A DNA stretch of 39,640 bases from Candidatus Yanofskybacteria bacterium (GCA_016181055.1 JACOZZ010000028.1:1-39640); one strand, 5' to 3'. Positions 15,182 through 32,425 are shown, counted from the stretch's first letter. Notes: generated by a model from the sequence alone, not told the origin. Translations and numbers: made by a program.

Positions 15182-15219
15182 TGTTCAATTATATCAAAAG
15201 CTGTAGAAAATTAAAACGG

Positions 15220-15292
15220 AGCCGGAGGTGAGATTCGAACTCACGACCTCTACTTTACGAAAGTATTGCTCTGCCAACTGAGCTACTCCGGC
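15220..15292 (-). tRNA. tRNA-Thr (anticodon CGT)
   Basis: 73 nt. The acceptor is GCCGGAG/CTCCGGC, the D arm is GCTC-AGTTGGCA-GAGC, the anticodon loop is TTCGTAA and the T arm is GTGAG-TTCGAAT-CTCAC. CCA is not encoded. Confidence 0.88.
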
Positions 15293-15690: not shown

Positions 15691-16881
15691 CTAATCCTCA
15701 AGCTGGAATATCCCGGCTGCACCCATGCCGCCGCCCACGCACATCGCCTCAAGGCCGAATTCCACGCCACGCCGGCGCATTTCATATATTAGCGTCGCGG
15801 CAATCCGGGCGCCAGAGCATCCCAGCGGATGGCCGAGTGCTATTGCTCCGCCATTCACATTTAAGTGACTTAGCGGCAACTCGCGCATTACCGCAAGCAT
15901 TTGCACCGCAAACGCTTCATTAAGTTCGATCAGGTCCATGTTTTTCAAATCAAGCGAAGCTCTTCGTAATACCTTTGGAATCGCAGCAACCGGTCCGATG
16001 CCAAAAAGTTTCGGCTCCAAAGCAGTAACCGCGTAATCAACCAGACGCGCCAGCGGTTTTATGCCGTGTCTCTTTGCGCGTACGCGGGACATAAGCATGA
16101 CCACCGCCGCTCCGTCGCTCATCTGCGAGGCATTGCCGGCTGTTACGGTTGAATCGGGGTCTTTGTCTTTTTCTATCGGCTCAAGTTTGGCCAGTTTTTC
16201 CAAAGAAGTGCTGCGCCTCGGTCCTTCATCGTTTTCAAATAAAATTTCCTTCATCCCTGCTTCTGCCGGTATTTTTAATTTTACCGGAACAATTTCTTCC
16301 ATAAATTTGCCGTCGTCTTGCGCCTGGATGGCTTTTTGATGGCTCCAAAGAGCAAACTCGTCCTGCTCCTGACGCGAAATCGCGTATAGCTTTCTTAAAA
16401 CTTCCGCGCCGCCGATGGTTGAAATATATGTTTGCGTTTCATTAAGAAGCATGGGGTGAGGTTCAAACTTGTTGCCCGTCATAGGTACCATACTCATGCT
16501 CTCCACGCCTCCGGCGATAATAACATCTGCTCCGCCGGCTTTAATCCTGTCGGTAGCAAAAGAAATGGCTTGCAGTCCGGATGAACAAAAACGATTGATG
16601 GTCATACCGGGAACGGTTATCGGCAATTCAGCTAAGAGCGAAATAATTCGCGCGACATTCATCCCCTGCTGCGCTTCGGGAAAAGCACAGCCGAATATAA
16701 CATCGTCAATAGTAAACGGGTTAAGCTGCGGGACTCTTTTCAAAAGCTCCCTTACGACAATCGCGCCCAAATCATCAGGGCGGGTTTGGCTCAACGCTCC
16801 GCGGAATTTACCCACCGGCGTACGGCACGCCGCCACAATTACCGCATCATCATCGGACTTGCGAGAACACTTATGGGACAT
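15691..16881 (-). CDS. Acetyl-CoA C-acyltransferase (canonical thiolase)
   Basis: All catalytic motifs are present: NRFCSSGLQAI (nucleophilic Cys), NVNGGAIALGHPLGCSGARI (His) and CVGGGMGAAGIF (acid/base Cys). AAGGAG lies 6 nt upstream of the ATG. Confidence 0.9.
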   Translation of the reverse strand: MSHKCSRKSDDDAVIVAACRTPVGKFRGALSQTRPDDLGAIVVRELLKRVPQLNPFTIDDVIFGCAFPEAQQGMNVARIISLLAELPITVPGMTINRFCSSGLQAISFATDRIKAGGADVIIAGGVESMSMVPMTGNKFEPHPMLLNETQTYISTIGGAEVLRKLYAISRQEQDEFALWSHQKAIQAQDDGKFMEEIVPVKLKIPAEAGMKEILFENDEGPRRSTSLEKLAKLEPIEKDKDPDSTVTAGNASQMSDGAAVVMLMSRVRAKRHGIKPLARLVDYAVTALEPKLFGIGPVAAIPKVLRRASLDLKNMDLIELNEAFAVQMLAVMRELPLSHLNVNGGAIALGHPLGCSGARIAATLIYEMRRRGVEFGLEAMCVGGGMGAAGIFQLED

Positions 16882-16923
16882 AGTTTTCTCCTTATGATTT
16901 TAACGAACCGATTTTGCGGCTTA

Positions 16924-16952
16924 AATATAGGTTGGAACGCCAAAAAAGTCAA
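16924..16952 (-). promoter_or_regulatory. Putative promoter of the thiolase gene
   Basis: Minus strand reads TTGACT (16952-16947), a 17-nt spacer, then TATATT (16929-16924). Confidence 0.4.
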
Positions 16953-16959
16953 CTTTTTC

Positions 16960-16987
16960 TTGACAGAAACCGTTTATATGCTAGTCT
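16960..16987 (+). promoter_or_regulatory. Putative promoter of the plus-strand acyl-CoA operon
   Basis: TTGACA (16960-16965), a 16-nt spacer, then TAGTCT (16982-16987). The perfect palindrome AAAAAGT-CA-ACTTTTT (16943-16958) lies between and over the two divergent -35 boxes. Confidence 0.35.
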
Positions 16988-17047
16988 ACCCTTGGTTATT
17001 TGGTACTTTTAAATATAACGGACAAATCGCAAAAAGGAGCGTCGTTT

Positions 17048-18247
17048 ATGGGACAACAGGTTGCAATAATCGGTTCGGGCATGACACAGTGCCGTTCACG
17101 CTGGACTGAGAAAACTTTCTGGGAACTGGCGCAAGAGGCGGTTGCTAACGCCGTAAAAGACGCGGGCATCCACATCAACGAAGTGAACGCCGGAGTTGTC
17201 GGAATATACAATGACATATTTGAATTCCAGGCAATTCCAGAATCGGGTCTTCAGGGCATTGTTGGTCTTGCCAATAAACCATTGATGCGCGTTTCAAGCG
17301 GCGGAGCAACGGGCGCTTACTCCATGCTCGCGGGCTACAACATGGTCGCAAGCGGCCAATATGACTTGGTTCTTGTCTTTGGCGTTGAAAAAGCGCTGGA
17401 CTGCTACGACTATGAAGCGCGAAGCGCTACACCCGCCGTAGTGCAGACCATCGGCTATTCATGGGACCCGTGGTTTGAGCGTCCGCTTGGCGCGCATGCG
17501 TCGGCAAGTTATGCCGCGGTGGTGCAGGCCTACATGGACGAACATCCGGGAGACCTTACCCCAATGGCACGAGCAAAAGTAGTAGAACTTTTGTGTCAGC
17601 ATGCGCAAAAAAATCCCTATGCCCAGCGCCTTGGGGAAAAAGTAACCGCTGACCAAGTTCTGAATTCTCGGTTCATCGTCCATCCTATTAGATCGCTTGA
17701 AACCTGCGTTTATACCGAAGGCGCCTGTGCGCTCATCTTCGCATCAGAAAAAGTAGCGCGGAGCATGGAACGCGTCGGACATGCACCAACATGGATATCG
17801 GGTGTTGGCGCTGCCAATGAACCGTATTTTGTCGGATGGGACATCAACCGCTACAAAGTTCTACATCGCATCTATTCCGACCACCTTGCTACCAAACGCG
17901 CCTTGGATATGGCGCACTTATCCATAAAAGACATCCAGGTCATTGAGCTGCATGATGCGTATATCCCGCAATTAATGATTACGCTAGCTGAAATGGGCGT
18001 AGTACCGCTTGGACGCGCAAACGACCTGGTGGAGGAAGGTATTATCATGCCAGGCGGGCGCATTTTGGTAAATCCGTCAGGAGGCCTTGTTTTTGGAGGA
18101 CATTTCGTGGGCGGCTCTAATATGATGTCTACATGGAGCGTAATGCGGGAATTCACGGAACAAAATCTTCAATTCGGCATGATCCATGGTACGGGAGCAT
18201 CCCTTTCCATGTACGGGTGTGTGTTTGTACTTGAAAGGAGGTCGTAA
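17048..18247 (+). CDS. SCPx/archaeal-type thiolase-fold protein apparently lacking the nucleophilic Cys
   Basis: The start MGQQVAIIGSGMTQ is preceded by AGGAG. The thiolase-fold blocks are PLMRVSSGGATGAYSMLAGYNMVASGQYDLVLVFGVEKA, IELHDAYIPQ and VNPSGGLVFGGHFVGGSN. The position normally C-A-S/T-G reads G-A-T-G. Confidence 0.7.
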   Translation: MGQQVAIIGSGMTQCRSRWTEKTFWELAQEAVANAVKDAGIHINEVNAGVVGIYNDIFEFQAIPESGLQGIVGLANKPLMRVSSGGATGAYSMLAGYNMVASGQYDLVLVFGVEKALDCYDYEARSATPAVVQTIGYSWDPWFERPLGAHASASYAAVVQAYMDEHPGDLTPMARAKVVELLCQHAQKNPYAQRLGEKVTADQVLNSRFIVHPIRSLETCVYTEGACALIFASEKVARSMERVGHAPTWISGVGAANEPYFVGWDINRYKVLHRIYSDHLATKRALDMAHLSIKDIQVIELHDAYIPQLMITLAEMGVVPLGRANDLVEEGIIMPGGRILVNPSGGLVFGGHFVGGSNMMSTWSVMREFTEQNLQFGMIHGTGASLSMYGCVFVLERRS

Positions 18248-18248
18248 C

Positions 18249-19292
18249 ATGGCGACCGAAAAAAAATTTGTAATTCCGCCGGCTATGCTGCCCGAAACGG
18301 GCATGCGCGAGGTTGCGGGGAATGACGGCAAAACCTACCTCGTCCGCAACGATGCGATGTTCACGGGCATGCAGCATGCCCAGGGAGAATTCTCAGAATT
18401 CTTTCTTGCGCTGCGTGATGAGTGCCGCATCTTCGGGCATCGCTGTCCCGGCTGCAATCACATCATCGTGCCGCCCTTTGAAAAACTGTGCCCTCCTTGT
18501 AATTTCAATAAAATGACCAAGGAATACGTGCTGGATATCGGGATAACGGTAGCAACGCCCGTCATTGTAGTCTTTGCCCCCGCGCGCTTCAAAGACGAAG
18601 TTCCCTTCGCACTCGGATACGTATACTTGGCCACAGCGGACAATAGCTTCACTGACTCAGCTTTATTCCTGCGCATGCGCACGACCCAAGGCGCCATCCG
18701 TCCGGGAATTTTCGGAAAAGAAACGCCGGTGAAAATCGTATTCCGCGACGTGCGGCGCGGCGAAATCCTAGACATCTTCGCGGTACCGCAATCGGAACTC
18801 ACCGCAGCGCAAATCGCCAAAACCCCGCTCTTAGAAAGCGACCTTGAATGGAATAGGGTTGAGACGCCGCATTGGACCGTTACTCCTGAACGCGCCGATG
18901 CGCTCAAAAAGGTCGTTCGTAGCTTTCAGCTTCTAGGAGAACGTATCGCAACAAGCCCGCGCGCAATAAAGGACCTTGCTAATTGGGAACGCAATGTTGA
19001 GGTTCGTACCGGAGGTGGAACATTCTGGTTCCGCATCCAAGACGGGACGCTGGAAGTCCACGACGGTCCCCATTCTGGTACCGCGAATCTTGTACTGACG
19101 ATAGAAGACCCGATGCCGTTGCTCCGTTGGGTCGAAAACACGCTCAATACAAGCGGAGAAAGCCTGACAAGCCCCCCGCTCACTGACTTTGTCATTGAGG
19201 GTCGGCTCCTGCTTAATAAAACCGAACTTGAAACAGTTACGCGGCTTGACCGCATTACCCGATCTCTTCGCCGTGATGCGAACGCAGGATAA
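18249..19292 (+). CDS. DUF35 (Zn-ribbon + OB-fold) protein fused to a C-terminal SCP2-like domain
   Basis: The ATG lies one base after the upstream TAA, with GGAGG 8 nt upstream. The CPGCNHIIVPPFEKLCPPCN zinc ribbon is followed by an OB-like segment (GITVATPVIVVFAP...PVKIVFRDV). The C-terminal 120 aa (GGTFWFRIQDGTLEVHDGPHSGTANLVLTIEDP...FVIEGRLLLNKTE) follow the SCP2 pattern. Confidence 0.65.
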   Translation: MATEKKFVIPPAMLPETGMREVAGNDGKTYLVRNDAMFTGMQHAQGEFSEFFLALRDECRIFGHRCPGCNHIIVPPFEKLCPPCNFNKMTKEYVLDIGITVATPVIVVFAPARFKDEVPFALGYVYLATADNSFTDSALFLRMRTTQGAIRPGIFGKETPVKIVFRDVRRGEILDIFAVPQSELTAAQIAKTPLLESDLEWNRVETPHWTVTPERADALKKVVRSFQLLGERIATSPRAIKDLANWERNVEVRTGGGTFWFRIQDGTLEVHDGPHSGTANLVLTIEDPMPLLRWVENTLNTSGESLTSPPLTDFVIEGRLLLNKTELETVTRLDRITRSLRRDANAG

Positions 19293-19297
19293 AAACA

Positions 19298-19513
19298 ATG
19301 ACGAAAAATAGAACAAGGGAGACAAACGTGGGCAAAAACAGAAAAACAAAACCGCCGGAAGGCATCGGCACATTGATAAACAGGCTAATTGACCTCAAGT
19401 TACGGCAGGGAAATAACAAAGATTTTGAGGCCGTTCTCTACGGCCATCAAAAAATAGGACAAATAGTACAGGAACTTAATTTACAACTCGCCGAAAAACG
19501 GCATAAAACATAA
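19298..19513 (+). CDS. Small basic hypothetical protein (71 aa)
   Basis: The ATG lies 5 nt after the upstream stop, with a weak AGGA upstream. It is followed directly by a strong terminator. No family recognised. Confidence 0.35.
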   Translation: MTKNRTRETNVGKNRKTKPPEGIGTLINRLIDLKLRQGNNKDFEAVLYGHQKIGQIVQELNLQLAEKRHKT

Positions 19514-19518
19514 AAAGC

Positions 19519-19546
19519 AATCCCGACATCATCGGGATTTTTATTT
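19519..19546 (+). terminator. Rho-independent terminator
   Basis: AATCCCGA-CATCA-TCGGGATT followed by TTTATTT. Confidence 0.7.
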
Positions 19547-19650
19547 GTCCCATCCTACAGCCGGCGGGCAATTGACTGATATATGCCGTGGTGTTAAAAC
19601 TATTACACAAAAAGCTCTTTTACATCTTTTACTGCTCCGGAGGGATATGT

Positions 19651-21648
19651 ATGCAAAATAAACAATTTGATTGGATGCCTACCGAAACGCATCTGCGTGA
19701 TTCGCGCATTGGACGTTTCATGCAAAAATACGGCATTTCAAGTTGCCAAGAACTTATAGAAAAGGCAAATACCGACTTGCATTGGTTTTGGAATGCCATA
19801 CTGGAAGACCTCGGATTTGAATGGCACACGCCATATGACAAGCTTCTTAACGACCAGCTTGGAATGCCTTGGGTAAAATGGTTTTCGGGAGGAAAGCTGA
19901 ATATCGTACATCATTGCCTGGATCGCCACGCCTATGGTCCCAAAGCGCAAAAAACGGCGCTTATCTGGGAGGGAGAGGACGGCCATATACGCAAAATAAC
20001 CTACGAAGAACTTTTATGCCTGACTGATAAACTTGCTTCAGCGATGACTCGTGCAAAAATTTCCAGAAGCGACGTCGTCGCAATGTGCATGAACCTGACC
20101 ATTGAAGCAGTTGCGGTTATGTTTGCTTCATTAAAGATAGGCGCGACGTGTCTTCAGGCCGGAACATGGCATGCTGCCGCAGAGCTCGCCAATATCCTTC
20201 AGCGTGGCGCTCCGAAAATGCTTTTTATCCATGACAGGCTACGGCGCGGCGGAGAAGAAATCAGTTTACGCGAAATAACAAAATACATCGCTTCAAGCAA
20301 TGAGACCCTGGGTACTATTGTTGCCCTGCCAAGACTTGGCGTTGAAGAACCGGACATAGATAGCATTACAGAAACGTATGACGGACGCATACAAAGTCTT
20401 GCGCATTTTTTGGAAACGGCAAGTTCCGATGTTCATCCCAAAACTCTTGCCTTAGACGCGGAGGAACGGTCGCTCATTCTCTTTTCCTCCGGAACTACCG
20501 GACGACCCAAAGCCATTGTTCATACCCATGCCGGGGCACTTGTCCAAACGGCCAAGGAAATCGGATATGCCTTTGATTGCCATGAGAATGACGTTTTTTG
20601 CTGGACGACAAGCATCGGCTGGATGATGGCGCCCTGGGAAATCATCGGCTCCATGTTTTTTGGAGCAACGCTAGTTCTCCTAGAAGGATCGCACATACAT
20701 CCTACCAAACACCGGCTCTTTGAGGTCATTGAGCGGCATCGCGTCTCCATTTTCGGAACCACGCCAGGTCATCTGCAAAAAATACGCGACGGCATAGAAA
20801 CATATTCCAACCACGACATTTCAAGTCTTAGAATTTTGGGATCCACCGGTAAAGTTCTTGATGCTGACCTCTGGTATTGGTTTTTCAAAGTATTTGGAAA
20901 CGGTAAACTTCCCATAATCAATATATTCGGCGGAACTGAAATTCTGGGATGTCTCGGGTCCCCTTTGCCGATTATGCCCCTTAGAGCCGGAACGGTCGGC
21001 ATGGCTTCTCTTGGAAGCGGAGCCGACGTATGCGATGAAAAGGATGATTCCGTGCGTGAACGGATCGGCAATGTTGTTTGCCGCAATCCTCTTCCGTCAA
21101 TGACAAAAGGGTTTCTTGATGATTCGCGGGGCTATCTGGACACGTATTTCTCAAATGGACCGAATTTGTGGCGGCACGGCGATCGCGCCCTGATTGACGA
21201 AGACGGCCTTTGGTTTCATTTGGGACGCGCTGACGATCTTATTATAAAAGACGGCATAAAGCACGACCCGGTAAAGATAGAAGATGCGCTTAAATTGTTT
21301 CCCGGTCCGCCGCATATTCTAGATGCTGCCGCCGTAGGAGTAACGGATGAAGAAAATCACGACCGTATTGTCTGCCTCGTAGTGCTTGATACGACATCCA
21401 TTGAAGATGGGAAAATATTTCAACGCGACGTAAGAAACCATGTAAAAATAACATATGGACCGCTGGGACAGCCAGATGACATTTATATCGTTAAGGAACT
21501 CCCGCTTAATCCGGCGAACAAAGTACCGCACAAGGTATTGAAATCTTTGTGCGAAGGTAATTCCGCATGCAATATAGCACTGCAGAATCCTTCAGTGATT
21601 GAAGATATAAAGAGAGTGCTTAGTCATTATAGACAAACCCGCTCATAG
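19651..21648 (+). CDS. AMP-forming acyl-CoA synthetase (acetyl-/acetoacetyl-CoA synthetase-like)
   Basis: The start MQNKQFDWMP is preceded by GGAGGG. The ACS/AACS-type N-terminus is W.P...FW...WF.GGKLN..HHCLDRH. The AMP-binding motif is FSSGTTGRPKAIVHTH. The C-terminal Lys region is divergent (LPLNPANKVPHKVL). A possible promoter is TTGACT-17-TAAAAC at 19572-19600. Confidence 0.8.
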   Translation: MQNKQFDWMPTETHLRDSRIGRFMQKYGISSCQELIEKANTDLHWFWNAILEDLGFEWHTPYDKLLNDQLGMPWVKWFSGGKLNIVHHCLDRHAYGPKAQKTALIWEGEDGHIRKITYEELLCLTDKLASAMTRAKISRSDVVAMCMNLTIEAVAVMFASLKIGATCLQAGTWHAAAELANILQRGAPKMLFIHDRLRRGGEEISLREITKYIASSNETLGTIVALPRLGVEEPDIDSITETYDGRIQSLAHFLETASSDVHPKTLALDAEERSLILFSSGTTGRPKAIVHTHAGALVQTAKEIGYAFDCHENDVFCWTTSIGWMMAPWEIIGSMFFGATLVLLEGSHIHPTKHRLFEVIERHRVSIFGTTPGHLQKIRDGIETYSNHDISSLRILGSTGKVLDADLWYWFFKVFGNGKLPIINIFGGTEILGCLGSPLPIMPLRAGTVGMASLGSGADVCDEKDDSVRERIGNVVCRNPLPSMTKGFLDDSRGYLDTYFSNGPNLWRHGDRALIDEDGLWFHLGRADDLIIKDGIKHDPVKIEDALKLFPGPPHILDAAAVGVTDEENHDRIVCLVVLDTTSIEDGKIFQRDVRNHVKITYGPLGQPDDIYIVKELPLNPANKVPHKVLKSLCEGNSACNIALQNPSVIEDIKRVLSHYRQTRS

Positions 21649-21665: not shown

Positions 21666-21740
21666 ACACTTTACCTGGTATTTTAATTCAGAGTATCTTT
21701 ACGACTTCGCTCGAACTCACTGGTTGGTTTTTTATATTTG

Positions 21741-21811
21741 AGCGGGATACCAGAATTGAACTGGCGTCTCTTGCTTGGGAAGCAAGCGTACTACCACTGT
21801 ACTAATCCCGC
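21741..21811 (-). tRNA. tRNA-Gly (anticodon CCC)
   Basis: 71 nt. The acceptor is GCGGGAT/ATCCCGC, the anticodon arm is CTTGC-TTCCCAA-GCAAG and the T arm is GCCAG-TTCAATT-CTGGT. The discriminator is T and CCA is not encoded. Confidence 0.9.
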
Positions 21812-31995: not shown

Positions 31996-32419
31996 CTTGG
32001 TAAATCGGGTGATTGCTGGCCGCTATAAAGCGGCTGGAGGAAAGTCCGAACACTGCTTCGCTAAAGCTATGCAGTGCGTAGCACCTTAGCAAAGTATTGG
32101 CAGTGGCTAACGGCCACCGGATATAAGTTCTGCAATTCTTCCTCTTAAGAGAAGAGCGGCAGAGCAAAATCTAGGGAAAGTGGCACAGAAACTATTCCGA
32201 GCTCTTTTGGCGTAAGTCAGAAGACTGCGGGTGAAAAGTTCCCGAACGGGATCGCCCCATGGTGACATGGGTGCGTGTTAAACCCTGCCTGGTGCAAGTA
32301 CAGCGTTGTAACACAGAAATGTGATACCTCGAAAAGTTCGTACGCTAGAGGTTGGCAGTAATGCCAATCCCAGATAAATAATCACACAAAAACAGAATTC
32401 GGCTTATAGATTTGCCAAG
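31996..32419 (+). ncRNA. rnpB: RNase P RNA (bacterial type A-like)
   Basis: The P4 5' strand is GGAGGAAAGTCCGAACAC (32035-) and the 3' strand is ACAGAATTCGGCTTATAG (32392-). P4 covaries relative to E. coli (CCGAA/TTCGG versus CCGGG/CCCGG). P1 pairs CTTGGTAAATC (31996-32006) with GATTTGCCAAG (32409-32419). TATAAT lies at 31988-31993. Confidence 0.9.
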
Positions 32420-32425
32420 ACAATC

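Follow-up and report, generated by a model that had tools for sequence, protein, structure and literature searches.

Two adjacent genes in a 39,640-nt stretch of a Candidatus Yanofskybacteria genome (GCA_016181055.1 JACOZZ010000028.1:1-39640), which we refer to in its whole length as the window, encode a thiolase-fold protein and a putative partner subunit. The first open reading frame, ORF1, carries glycine at the position of the nucleophilic cysteine of thiolases, and the second, ORF2, encodes a DUF35 module fused to an SCP2-fold domain. The domain make-up, the loss of the cysteine, the conservation of both proteins, their gene pairing and their neighbourhood are solid observations, and from them we infer complex formation, a type of reaction and a kind of substrate. 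We suggest, with a probability of roughly 0.35-0.4, that the pair would be a two-subunit, non-covalent acyl-CoA C-C lyase, i.e. an aldolase-type enzyme.

A thiolase fold without the acyl-accepting cysteine

Profile searches and fold comparison place ORF1 in the thiolase superfamily, within the archaeal/SCP2-type branch of DUF35-associated acetyl-CoA acetyltransferases (ACATs). It was matched by the Pfam families Thiolase_N, Thiolase_C and Thiolase_C_1, and it scored far under the cutoffs of all the NCBIfam thiolase and 'lipid-transfer protein' models (208 bits vs 420 for the best of them, PRK06064). In the profile comparison with the PDB, the nearest solved structure was the archaeal thiolase 6esq_A (1.6e-39), and the archaeal DUF35-associated thiolases scored 1.6e-39 and 5e-38. 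After these DUF35-associated enzymes came the SCP2-thiolase 6HSJ (6e-36), PhlC and BbsB, and then, later in the order, Ltp2 (1.5e-20) and Sal (1.6e-17). The top Foldseek matches were 6et9_C, 6esq_A and 7yvy, with TM scores of about 0.8; Ltp2 was found at rank 43 and Sal at rank 41. The AlphaFold2 (AF2) model of ORF1 had a pLDDT of 87.6, and only low confidence was obtained for the conserved loop 126-149.

A 2026 study of complexes of HMG-CoA synthase, ACAT and DUF35 proteins named three ACAT motifs, CxS, HDxF and GHx, and the histidine of HDxF is essential (PMC12960953). ORF1 has the HDxF and GHx motifs and lacks the thiolase-defining nucleophilic cysteine of CxS, and it has thus lost only the acyl-accepting residue. 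We aligned it by phmmer with four solved relatives, the archaeal thiolase 6esq_A (rveaaCASG), the zebrafish SCP2-thiolase 6hsj_A (vnnnCSTG), 7yvy_A of P. furiosus and PhlC (5m3k_C, Cys88), and in all four alignments the cysteine column was taken by Gly86 of ORF1 (rvssgGATG). The glycine that the original prediction, made from the sequence of the window, had placed at the nucleophile position is therefore confirmed, including by the archaeal thiolase and the SCP2-thiolase, and no cysteine of ORF1 stands in that column. The cysteine that many SCP2-type thiolases have within HDxF (HDCF) is also replaced, by alanine (HDAY), as it is in the P. furiosus enzyme 7YVY, which reads HDAF and yet has its nucleophilic cysteine. 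The C-terminal histidine block NPSGGL...GGH, likewise predicted to be kept, is intact at residues 342-352 (GGH at 350-352), and its Asn342 and His352 are invariant. Glu114 was aligned by phmmer with Glu116 of PhlC, the general base of that enzyme (PMC12960953).

The earlier description of ORF1 as 'Cys-less' holds for the catalytic positions and fails for the protein as a whole, which has six cysteines. One of them, Cys220, was invariant in 175 of 176 sequences and sits four residues before the segment equivalent to DGA (LETCVYTEGA). By comparison with the Zoogloea thiolase, we take this segment to line the CoA/pantetheine groove and not the catalytic centre.

The altered active site is strongly conserved. 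GGATG, H-D-A-[FY] and GGHFVGGSN were invariant in 120/120 of the best ORF1 homologues listed, and the same three motifs were near-invariant in the 176 sequences, which included a second subfamily about 50% identical to the first (HDxF histidine, 174/176). In these 176 sequences about 90 positions of ORF1 were at least 97% conserved, and they clustered in the catalytic loops. Because the motifs are invariant or nearly so throughout the family, the loss of the cysteine is a selected state and not a sequencing error or the mark of a pseudogene.

The members of subfamily A came from lineages of the Candidate Phyla Radiation (CPR), Acidobacteriota, Nitrospinota, Tectomicrobia and Actinomycetota, and those of subfamily B from Bacillota, Dehalococcoidia, Desulfomonilaceae and Myxococcales. 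Inside each subfamily, ORF1 was 75-90% identical across phyla and ORF2 45-83% in the same comparisons. Identities of 75-90% in ORF1 were found even between CPR and Acidobacteriota, or between Bacillota and Myxococcales, compared with 45-69% in its partner, which may result from extreme constraint or from repeated transfer.

A DUF35 module fused to an SCP2-fold domain

According to its predicted structure and to scans of its family, ORF2 is a DUF35 protein, with a 4-Cys zinc ribbon and an OB part, fused to an SCP2-fold domain. Both domains could be assigned only from scans of the whole family and from a predicted structure, because the window protein alone gave no significant Pfam or NCBIfam match (zf-ChsH2, E 0.58; OB_ChsH2_C, E 0.24; nothing for the C-terminus) and reached only E 0.028 against the DUF35 chain 6esq_E. 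When a Pfam scan was made at the family level, zf-ChsH2 was matched by 49 of 53 members (best 8e-7) and SCP2 (PF02036) by 28 of 53 at E<=1 (best 6e-4), the latter values not being set against the curated cutoff. The four ribbon cysteines, C66, C69, C81 and C84, were invariant in the 53 members.

In the AF2 model of ORF2 (pLDDT 84.5), the ribbon and OB part was accompanied by an alpha/beta domain at the C-terminus (residues 213-347, pLDDT about 90) whose secondary structure elements follow the SCP2 order. Foldseek matched the N-terminal part, over about 140 columns, to the DUF35 chains or domains of Sal-Shy (9myr_B), Ltp2-ChsH2 (6ok1_B), the archaeal thiolase/HMG-CoA synthase complex (6esq_E-G), PhlB (5m3k_B), BbsA (7pxp_A) and MucABC, and to 3irb, and the best of these matches were Ltp2-ChsH2 and Sal-Shy. 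The C-terminal part was matched to AF1534, the SCP2 proteins of T. thermophilus and human, UbiJ-SCP2, the SCP2L domain of MFE-2 and the C-terminal domains of alkylsulfatases (3bn8, 2cx7, 8af2, 6h6p, 1ikt). Foldseek E values were 4.5e-6 to 1e-3 for ORF2 overall and 1e-4 to 1e-3 for the SCP2 part, with a target-normalised TM of 0.55-0.67. The reading of a CxxC...CxxC ribbon followed by an OB segment as DUF35 is thus upheld by the invariant cysteines, the zf-ChsH2 matches and Foldseek. The C-terminal SCP2 domain had been expected to span about 120 aa; its fold agrees, and its length is closer to 135 aa.

In a profile search covering 1.84 billion representatives, the weak matches of the ORF2 profile (positions 40-180) were ordinary DUF35 proteins of 130-170 aa (PF01796 and PF12172) or tandem DUF35 proteins. 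The longer remote matches were considered as further DUF35-SCP2 fusions and rejected, as they were tandem DUF35 proteins. The first 55 residues of ORF2 are highly conserved yet poorly predicted by AF2, like loop 126-149 of ORF1; both regions may become ordered upon complex formation or substrate binding.

A constant and widespread gene pair

ORF2 had 215 homologues of about 350 aa. The family is compact, with 157 clusters at E<=1e-3, or about 16 when full-length members are clustered at 50% identity, and it occurred in 69 loci of GTDB species representatives, every one of which was a metagenome-assembled genome (MAG). In 74/74 testable loci, a relative of ORF1 lay directly upstream of the ORF2 relative on the same strand, and the gap between them was 1-7 nt in all gene-called loci. 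The pair was present in MAGs of CPR, Acidobacteriota, Nitrospinota, Bacillota, Dehalococcoidia and the Desulfobacterota type. Apparent ORF1-ORF2 fusions of 540-720 aa in high-GC loci were artefacts of out-of-frame longest ORFs, and no Rosetta-stone fusion was left among them.

To our knowledge, the DUF35 proteins that have been characterised all bind a partner with the thiolase fold, as in all the solved DUF35 complexes. The adjacency in all testable loci, the short gaps and this precedent strongly suggest, as the original prediction supposed, that ORF1 and ORF2 are two subunits of one complex.

The same prediction regarded the DUF35-SCP2 architecture as unrecognised. In fact, one sentence of the 2010 paper on the SSO2064 structure lists SCP2 among the domains fused to DUF35 homologues (PMC2954200), and the fusion is widespread in MAGs. 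Our literature search found no paper characterising a DUF35-SCP2 protein or this gene pair, and the pair, although widespread, is therefore not an already characterised operon type. Its presence in a CPR-like genome had also been considered unexpected. The window does come from a CPR genome, since the best named relatives of its LepA belong to Yanofskybacteria (85% identity), Paceibacterota and Patescibacteria; however, the pair is not peculiar to it, being carried by other CPR (Niyogibacteria and Nealsonbacteria) and by other phyla.

Genes around the pair

Neighbours were counted across 70+ loci. In 19 loci an acyl-CoA dehydrogenase gene was near the pair, in many cases as the gene just upstream. 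The best match of this enzyme was to acryloyl-/butyryl-CoA dehydrogenase-like proteins, below threshold, and some of these dehydrogenases had a secondary match to the non-decarboxylating glutaryl-CoA dehydrogenase. A ligase resembling acetyl-CoA and acetoacetyl-CoA synthetases (ACS/AACS) was near the pair in 14 loci. In the six distinct loci with a subfamily-A pair, it was 48-67% identical to the copy in the window, and in the other loci 22-27%; orthologues of the window ligase adjoin the pair in L001, L003, L006, L010, L018 and L077. In 6 loci, some of them in Terriglobia, A and B subunits of a glutaconate-CoA-transferase-like (Gct-like) enzyme took the place of the ligase, and a crotonase was near the pair in 6 loci.

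The window ligase did not reach the cutoff of any NCBIfam model for an acetate-, acetoacetate- or propionate-CoA ligase. In the alignment with S. enterica Acs, it had glycine at Trp414 of the acetate pocket and threonine at Val386. ACS mutants that lose Trp414 have an enlarged acetate pocket. The ligase lacks the acetate pocket closed by Trp414 and is not an acetyl-CoA synthetase proper; the glycine therefore argues for a substrate larger than acetate, probably a larger acid or a 3-oxo acid.

Several loci had neighbours of their own. In Nealsonbacteria (L077, 1-7429; GCA_016188865.1) the genes after the pair encoded a DUF2889 protein, the ACS-like ligase, a short GTPase resembling MeaB and the beta and alpha subunits of the electron transfer flavoprotein, a set of electron-transfer and acyl-CoA genes that is unexpected for a CPR genome. 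In Dehalococcoidia, a gene for a beta-keto acid cleavage enzyme (BKACE) lay directly downstream of the pair in one locus (L038, 9168-10091), and in another (L049, 8426-12135) genes for Gct-like CoA-transferase subunits came after the pair, together with an HpaB/4-hydroxybutyryl-CoA-dehydratase-like (AbfD) gene. These two loci point to C4 or beta-keto-acid metabolism. In Niyogibacteria (L079/L080, 3998-9318), the region immediately upstream of the pair held genes for an integrase and a serine recombinase, HTH genes and a restriction-modification system of type I; the related genome L076 has none of these at the corresponding site, indicating a variable spot rich in mobile elements. Genes for Hemerythrin-like, RidA, Nuo, MCP, MerR and molybdopterin proteins beside the pair formed minor clusters and were set aside, as they had no common theme.

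Possible chemistry

Because the cysteine is absent, the ping-pong route of thiolysis and Claisen condensation through an acyl-enzyme is impossible for ORF1. With the cysteine-dependent route excluded, non-covalent, enolate-based C-C chemistry on an acyl-CoA becomes the most likely. In the lyase that we propose, His302 of HDxF and His352 of GHx would polarise the CoA thioester and stabilise the enolate. The DUF35 module of ORF2 would dock on ORF1 as in the solved DUF35 complexes, and the SCP2 domain, with its hydrophobic ligand pocket, would consequently be placed near the substrate entrance. The acid would first be activated by the ACS/AACS-like ligase or the CoA-transferase and, in many genomes, be desaturated by a short-chain acyl-CoA dehydrogenase. 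The most plausible reaction would then be a retro-aldol-type cleavage of 3-hydroxyacyl-CoA that yields an aldehyde or ketone together with acetyl- or acyl-CoA, or this reaction run backwards, with His302, Glu114 or acidic residues of loop 126-149 perhaps serving as general base or acid. Neither a 3-hydroxyacyl-CoA dehydrogenase nor a true thiolase was a regular neighbour of the pair in the loci counted, which fits a cleavage that bypasses both. The best precedent is given by Ltp2 and Sal, which are retro-aldolases with a thiolase fold and a DUF35 partner and likewise have glycine in place of the nucleophile (PMC12329534).

Several points weigh against the lyase. The catalytic tyrosine of Ltp2 and Sal (YDHF/YDCY) is histidine in ORF1, and Cys304 of Sal is alanine. 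Beyond Glu114 and family-specific acidic residues in the low-confidence loop 126-149, there is no obvious general base or acid. A lipophilic ligand would be expected from the SCP2 domain, but short acyl chains from the neighbouring genes, and a hydratase was not constant among the neighbours. In Niyogibacteria (an 837-kb genome) and in one of the Nealsonbacteria, the pair stood alone among housekeeping genes, so that it cannot everywhere be part of a catabolic pathway of several steps.

In its full form, the proposal would place the pair in a new class of enzymes, lyases of the thiolase fold that work without the cysteine and hold their substrate by SCP2. Acetyl-CoA and an aldehyde or ketone would be interconverted with 3-hydroxyacyl-CoA, or with enoyl-CoA and water. 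Such an enzyme could offer short- or branched-chain acyl-CoA metabolism a shortcut that needs neither dehydrogenase nor thiolase, shared by peat Acidobacteriota, syntrophic and sulfate-reducing anaerobes and minimal CPR cells. We regard this wider claim as doubtful.

It is also conceivable, though we think it rather improbable, that the pair is a non-catalytic carrier of acyl-CoA or lipid, in which ORF1 as a pseudo-enzyme binds the CoA thioester and SCP2 holds the lipid, so that substrates are delivered or buffered, or host lipids are handled in a lipid-scavenging CPR cell. The loss of the nucleophile, the carrier fold of SCP2 and the solitary pairs in minimal CPR genomes without fatty-acid pathways would all agree with this. 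Besides, DUF35 proteins were first proposed to deliver acyl-CoA (PMC2954200), and M. smegmatis TLP1, a thiolase-like protein without the catalytic residues, has no thiolase activity (PMC3406046). However, His302, His352, Asn342, Glu114 and the surrounding loops are invariant across subfamilies that are only about 50% identical, which is hard to explain by binding only. ORF1 also evolves far more slowly than ORF2, and the pair is regularly associated with enzymes that form and oxidise acyl-CoA.

An unlikely alternative is the decarboxylation of a carboxylated acyl-CoA of the malonyl-, methylmalonyl-, 3-oxoglutaryl- or glutaconyl-CoA type, with the two histidines stabilising the enolate. The enolate-stabilising His-His set is indeed present without the cysteine. 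Parallels exist in the ketosynthase chain-length factors, where cysteine is changed to glutamine, and in ketosynthases that become malonyl decarboxylases once their cysteine is mutated. In addition, T. brucei SLP, a Cys-poor protein resembling SCP2-thiolase, was crystallised with malonyl-CoA (5ab7), and Gct-like subunits and the acyl-CoA dehydrogenases with a secondary match to the non-decarboxylating glutaryl-CoA dehydrogenase occur nearby. Against this, no carboxylase or dicarboxylate-specific gene was constant among the neighbours, and the neighbouring ligase is of the monocarboxylate ACS/AACS type. The question of a malonyl-CoA decarboxylase has been discussed (PMC12329534), and CtSal, which has the same glycine, does not decarboxylate malonyl-CoA.

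The chance is very small that ORF1 is a working thiolase, using another nucleophile such as Cys220 or a direct attack by free CoA. The near-complete conservation of Cys220 and the intact HDxF and GHx motifs, both needed for thiolysis, would speak for it; on the other side are the presumed place of Cys220 in the CoA groove and the agreement of four independent alignments on Gly86. We know of no thiolase that works without the cysteine at the N-beta3/N-alpha3 turn.

Membership in the Ltp2/Sal family of steroid or bile-acid side-chain aldolases is the least credible possibility, for although the glycine and the DUF35 partner are shared, the motif test contradicts it (Y-D-[HC]-[FY] reads H-D-A-[FY]), DUF35 is fused to SCP2 and not to a MaoC hydratase, steroid-catabolic genes are absent nearby, the archaeal, SCP2, PhlC and BbsB thiolases all rank higher by profile and the fold ranks are as low as 41-43, and the pair is hosted by CPR, by Acidobacteriota of peat and by strict anaerobes. 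The analogy with an Ltp2-type acyl-CoA aldolase in the original prediction thus stands for the glycine and fails for the tyrosine and for kinship, archaeal thiolases being closer. Because the tyrosine is histidine and these thiolases are the nearest relatives, the pair is not an Ltp2/Sal aldolase, and the word aldolase stands here for a hypothesis on chemistry and not for family membership.

Layout of the genes and their setting in the window

The positions of the pair and of its immediate neighbours are given in Table 1. A single base, C at 18248, separates the TAA of ORF1 from the ATG of ORF2, and the earlier reading of a second gene starting one base after the stop, behind its own GGAGG, agrees with these coordinates. 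The start of ORF2 also agrees with the N-termini of about 50 homologues in the alignment, and the two genes look translationally coupled.

Table 1. Positions of the gene pair, its motifs and adjacent features in the window
Feature	Position	Strand	Basis or remark
ORF1, thiolase-fold subunit of the archaeal/SCP2-type branch, 399 aa	17048..18247	+	ATG 17048, TAA 18245-18247
Putative ribosome-binding site of ORF1, AGGAG	17035-17039	+	Sequence read
ORF1 GGATG, residues 85-89 (CxS motif; Gly86 in the nucleophile Cys column)	17300..17314	+	Alignments
ORF1 HDAY, residues 302-305 (HDxF motif; His kept, x = Ala)	17951..17962	+	Alignments
ORF1 NPSGGLVFGGH, residues 342-352 (GHx histidine block)	18071..18103	+	Alignments
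Ribosome-binding site of ORF2, GGAGG, within the 3' end of ORF1, 7 nt ahead of the ATG	18237..18241	+	Sequence read
ORF2, DUF35-SCP2 fusion protein (predicted domains), 347 aa	18249..19292	+	ATG 18249, stop 19290-19292
ORF2 DUF35 module, residues ~45-180 (predicted helix, 4-Cys zinc ribbon, OB barrel)	18381..18788	+	Family Pfam, Foldseek
ORF2 zinc-ribbon Cys C66, C69, C81, C84	18444-18500	+	Family alignment
ORF2 predicted SCP2-fold domain, residues 213-347	18885..19289	+	Foldseek, family Pfam
Predicted terminator (hairpin and T run, by consensus match alone), closing the ORF1-ORF2 transcript	19519..19539	+	
Acyl-CoA ligase of the ACS/AACS family (665 aa), recurring next to the pair	19651..21648	+	Pfam ACAS_N, AMP-binding, AMP-binding_C
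Classical Cys-bearing acetyl-CoA C-acyltransferase, divergent to ORF1	15691..16881	-	TIGR01930, 452 bits, above cutoff

A 71-codon ORF with a basic N-terminus (19298-19513, + strand) begins 6 nt past the stop of ORF2, and the strong hairpin of the predicted terminator follows it directly. It had no homologue in any fetched locus and may be either a spurious ORF of the 3' untranslated region or a small lineage-specific protein. The ligase probably starts at ATG 19651, behind GGAGGG, and the hairpin separates it from the pair.

The acyl-CoA block of four genes (15691-21648) lies between tRNA-Thr(CGT) at 15218-15292 and tRNA-Gly(CCC) at 21740-21811. ORF1, ORF2 and the ligase are the only long genes on the + strand of a window otherwise read on the - strand. 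The GC content of the block is 0.47-0.54, compared to 0.44 for the window overall, and in the closest relative the three-gene block is located elsewhere, beside rpsL/rpsG. These features are suggestive of an inserted island, and horizontal acquisition fits them, unproven as it is and with a modest difference in GC.

The classical thiolase, head-to-head with ORF1, is a member of this local block and not a conserved partner. Among the other loci of the pair, only L075 has a classical thiolase, which is 37% identical and about 3 kb from the ORF2 match, itself only a weak and partial DUF35 hit. In the window, the classical thiolase and the AACS-like ligase could jointly provide a route from acetoacetate to acetyl-CoA. 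Elsewhere in the window, a bacterial class A RNase P RNA (31997-32422, + strand, 155 bits) is encoded on the strand opposite to nearly all the protein genes.

Comparison with known systems and significance

The closest systems to ORF1 by profile and fold are the archaeal thiolase/DUF35 pairs, known from the thiolase-HMG-CoA synthase-DUF35 complex of M. thermolithotrophicus (6ESQ/6ET9), from P. furiosus (7YVY) and from the KT/DUF35 fatty-acid synthase core of S. acidocaldarius. They have the same gene order, with the thiolase-fold gene before the DUF35 gene, and HDxF, GHx and Glu114 in common with our pair. However, theirs are active, Cys-bearing thiolases, and their DUF35 proteins of about 130 aa have no SCP2 domain. 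HMG-CoA synthase or reductase and dehydratase are further partners in the archaeal complexes (bioRxiv 10.1101/2024.07.05.601840), and none of them adjoins the pair here.

Ltp2-ChsH2 (6OK1) and Sal-Shy (9MYR) resemble the pair in the glycine at the nucleophile position, in the obligatory DUF35 domain and in having an acyl-CoA dehydrogenase upstream in the pathway. They differ by their catalytic tyrosine, their DUF35 fused to MaoC hydratase and their steroid gene context, whereas our pair has histidine, SCP2 and no steroid genes. Tyr344 of Ltp2 and Gln352 of Sal would correspond to His352 of ORF1, an equivalence suggested only by the numbering and not by alignment.

A thiolase fold of the same branch and SCP2 are joined in one functional unit in SCPx, i.e. 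the type 1 SCP2-thiolase (6HSJ), and the SCP2-like domain occurs in MFE-2. In SCPx, however, SCP2 follows the C-terminus of an active, Cys-bearing thiolase with HDCF, while here it sits behind DUF35 in a separate chain and ORF1 has neither of the two cysteines. The pair could be described as an SCPx in two pieces to which a DUF35 adaptor has been added and from which the nucleophile is gone.

In the Friedel-Crafts acyltransferases PhlABC and MucABC and in the benzoylsuccinyl-CoA thiolase BbsAB, a DUF35 protein (PhlB, the DUF35 chain of MucABC, BbsA) docks on a thiolase fold of the SCP2 type. PhlC, MucB and BbsB keep the catalytic cysteine, and the Phl and Muc enzymes have a third subunit resembling HMG-CoA synthase. 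PhlC and MucB have lost HDxF (PMC12960953), which is opposite to the situation in ORF1.

The nucleophile of the thiolase fold is also lost in T. brucei SLP (5AB4) and in M. smegmatis TLP1. SLP has YDCF and no DUF35 partner, and TLP1 is monomeric, with all catalytic residues lost and a fused C-terminal domain, whereas ORF1 keeps both histidine motifs. TLP1 was considered as a precedent for a thiolase-like protein joined to SCP2 and was dropped, because its C-terminal domain is a beta-barrel (PMC3406046).

Complexes of thiolases and DUF35 proteins are emerging as a versatile platform, with roles in fatty-acid synthesis and the archaeal mevalonate pathway, in the degradation of toluene, in the steroid side-chain aldolases and in the Friedel-Crafts acylases. 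The pair adds to it a widespread branch in which only the acyl-accepting cysteine was lost, both histidine motifs were kept and SCP2 is carried by the DUF35 adaptor. The high conservation of ORF1 and the survival of the pair in CPR genomes of roughly 0.8 Mb argue for a real and important function that is masked by annotation. ORF1 is annotated as 'thiolase family protein' or 'acetyl-CoA acetyltransferase', though it cannot act as a thiolase, and ORF2 is called 'hypothetical'. The family is well defined, widespread and mis-annotated, and the state of its active site is unusual, although it breaks no current concepts. It might provide a new C-C lyase for biocatalysis, and its function, once solved, would correct a systematic mis-annotation in the metabolic reconstructions of CPR, Acidobacteriota and anaerobic degraders.

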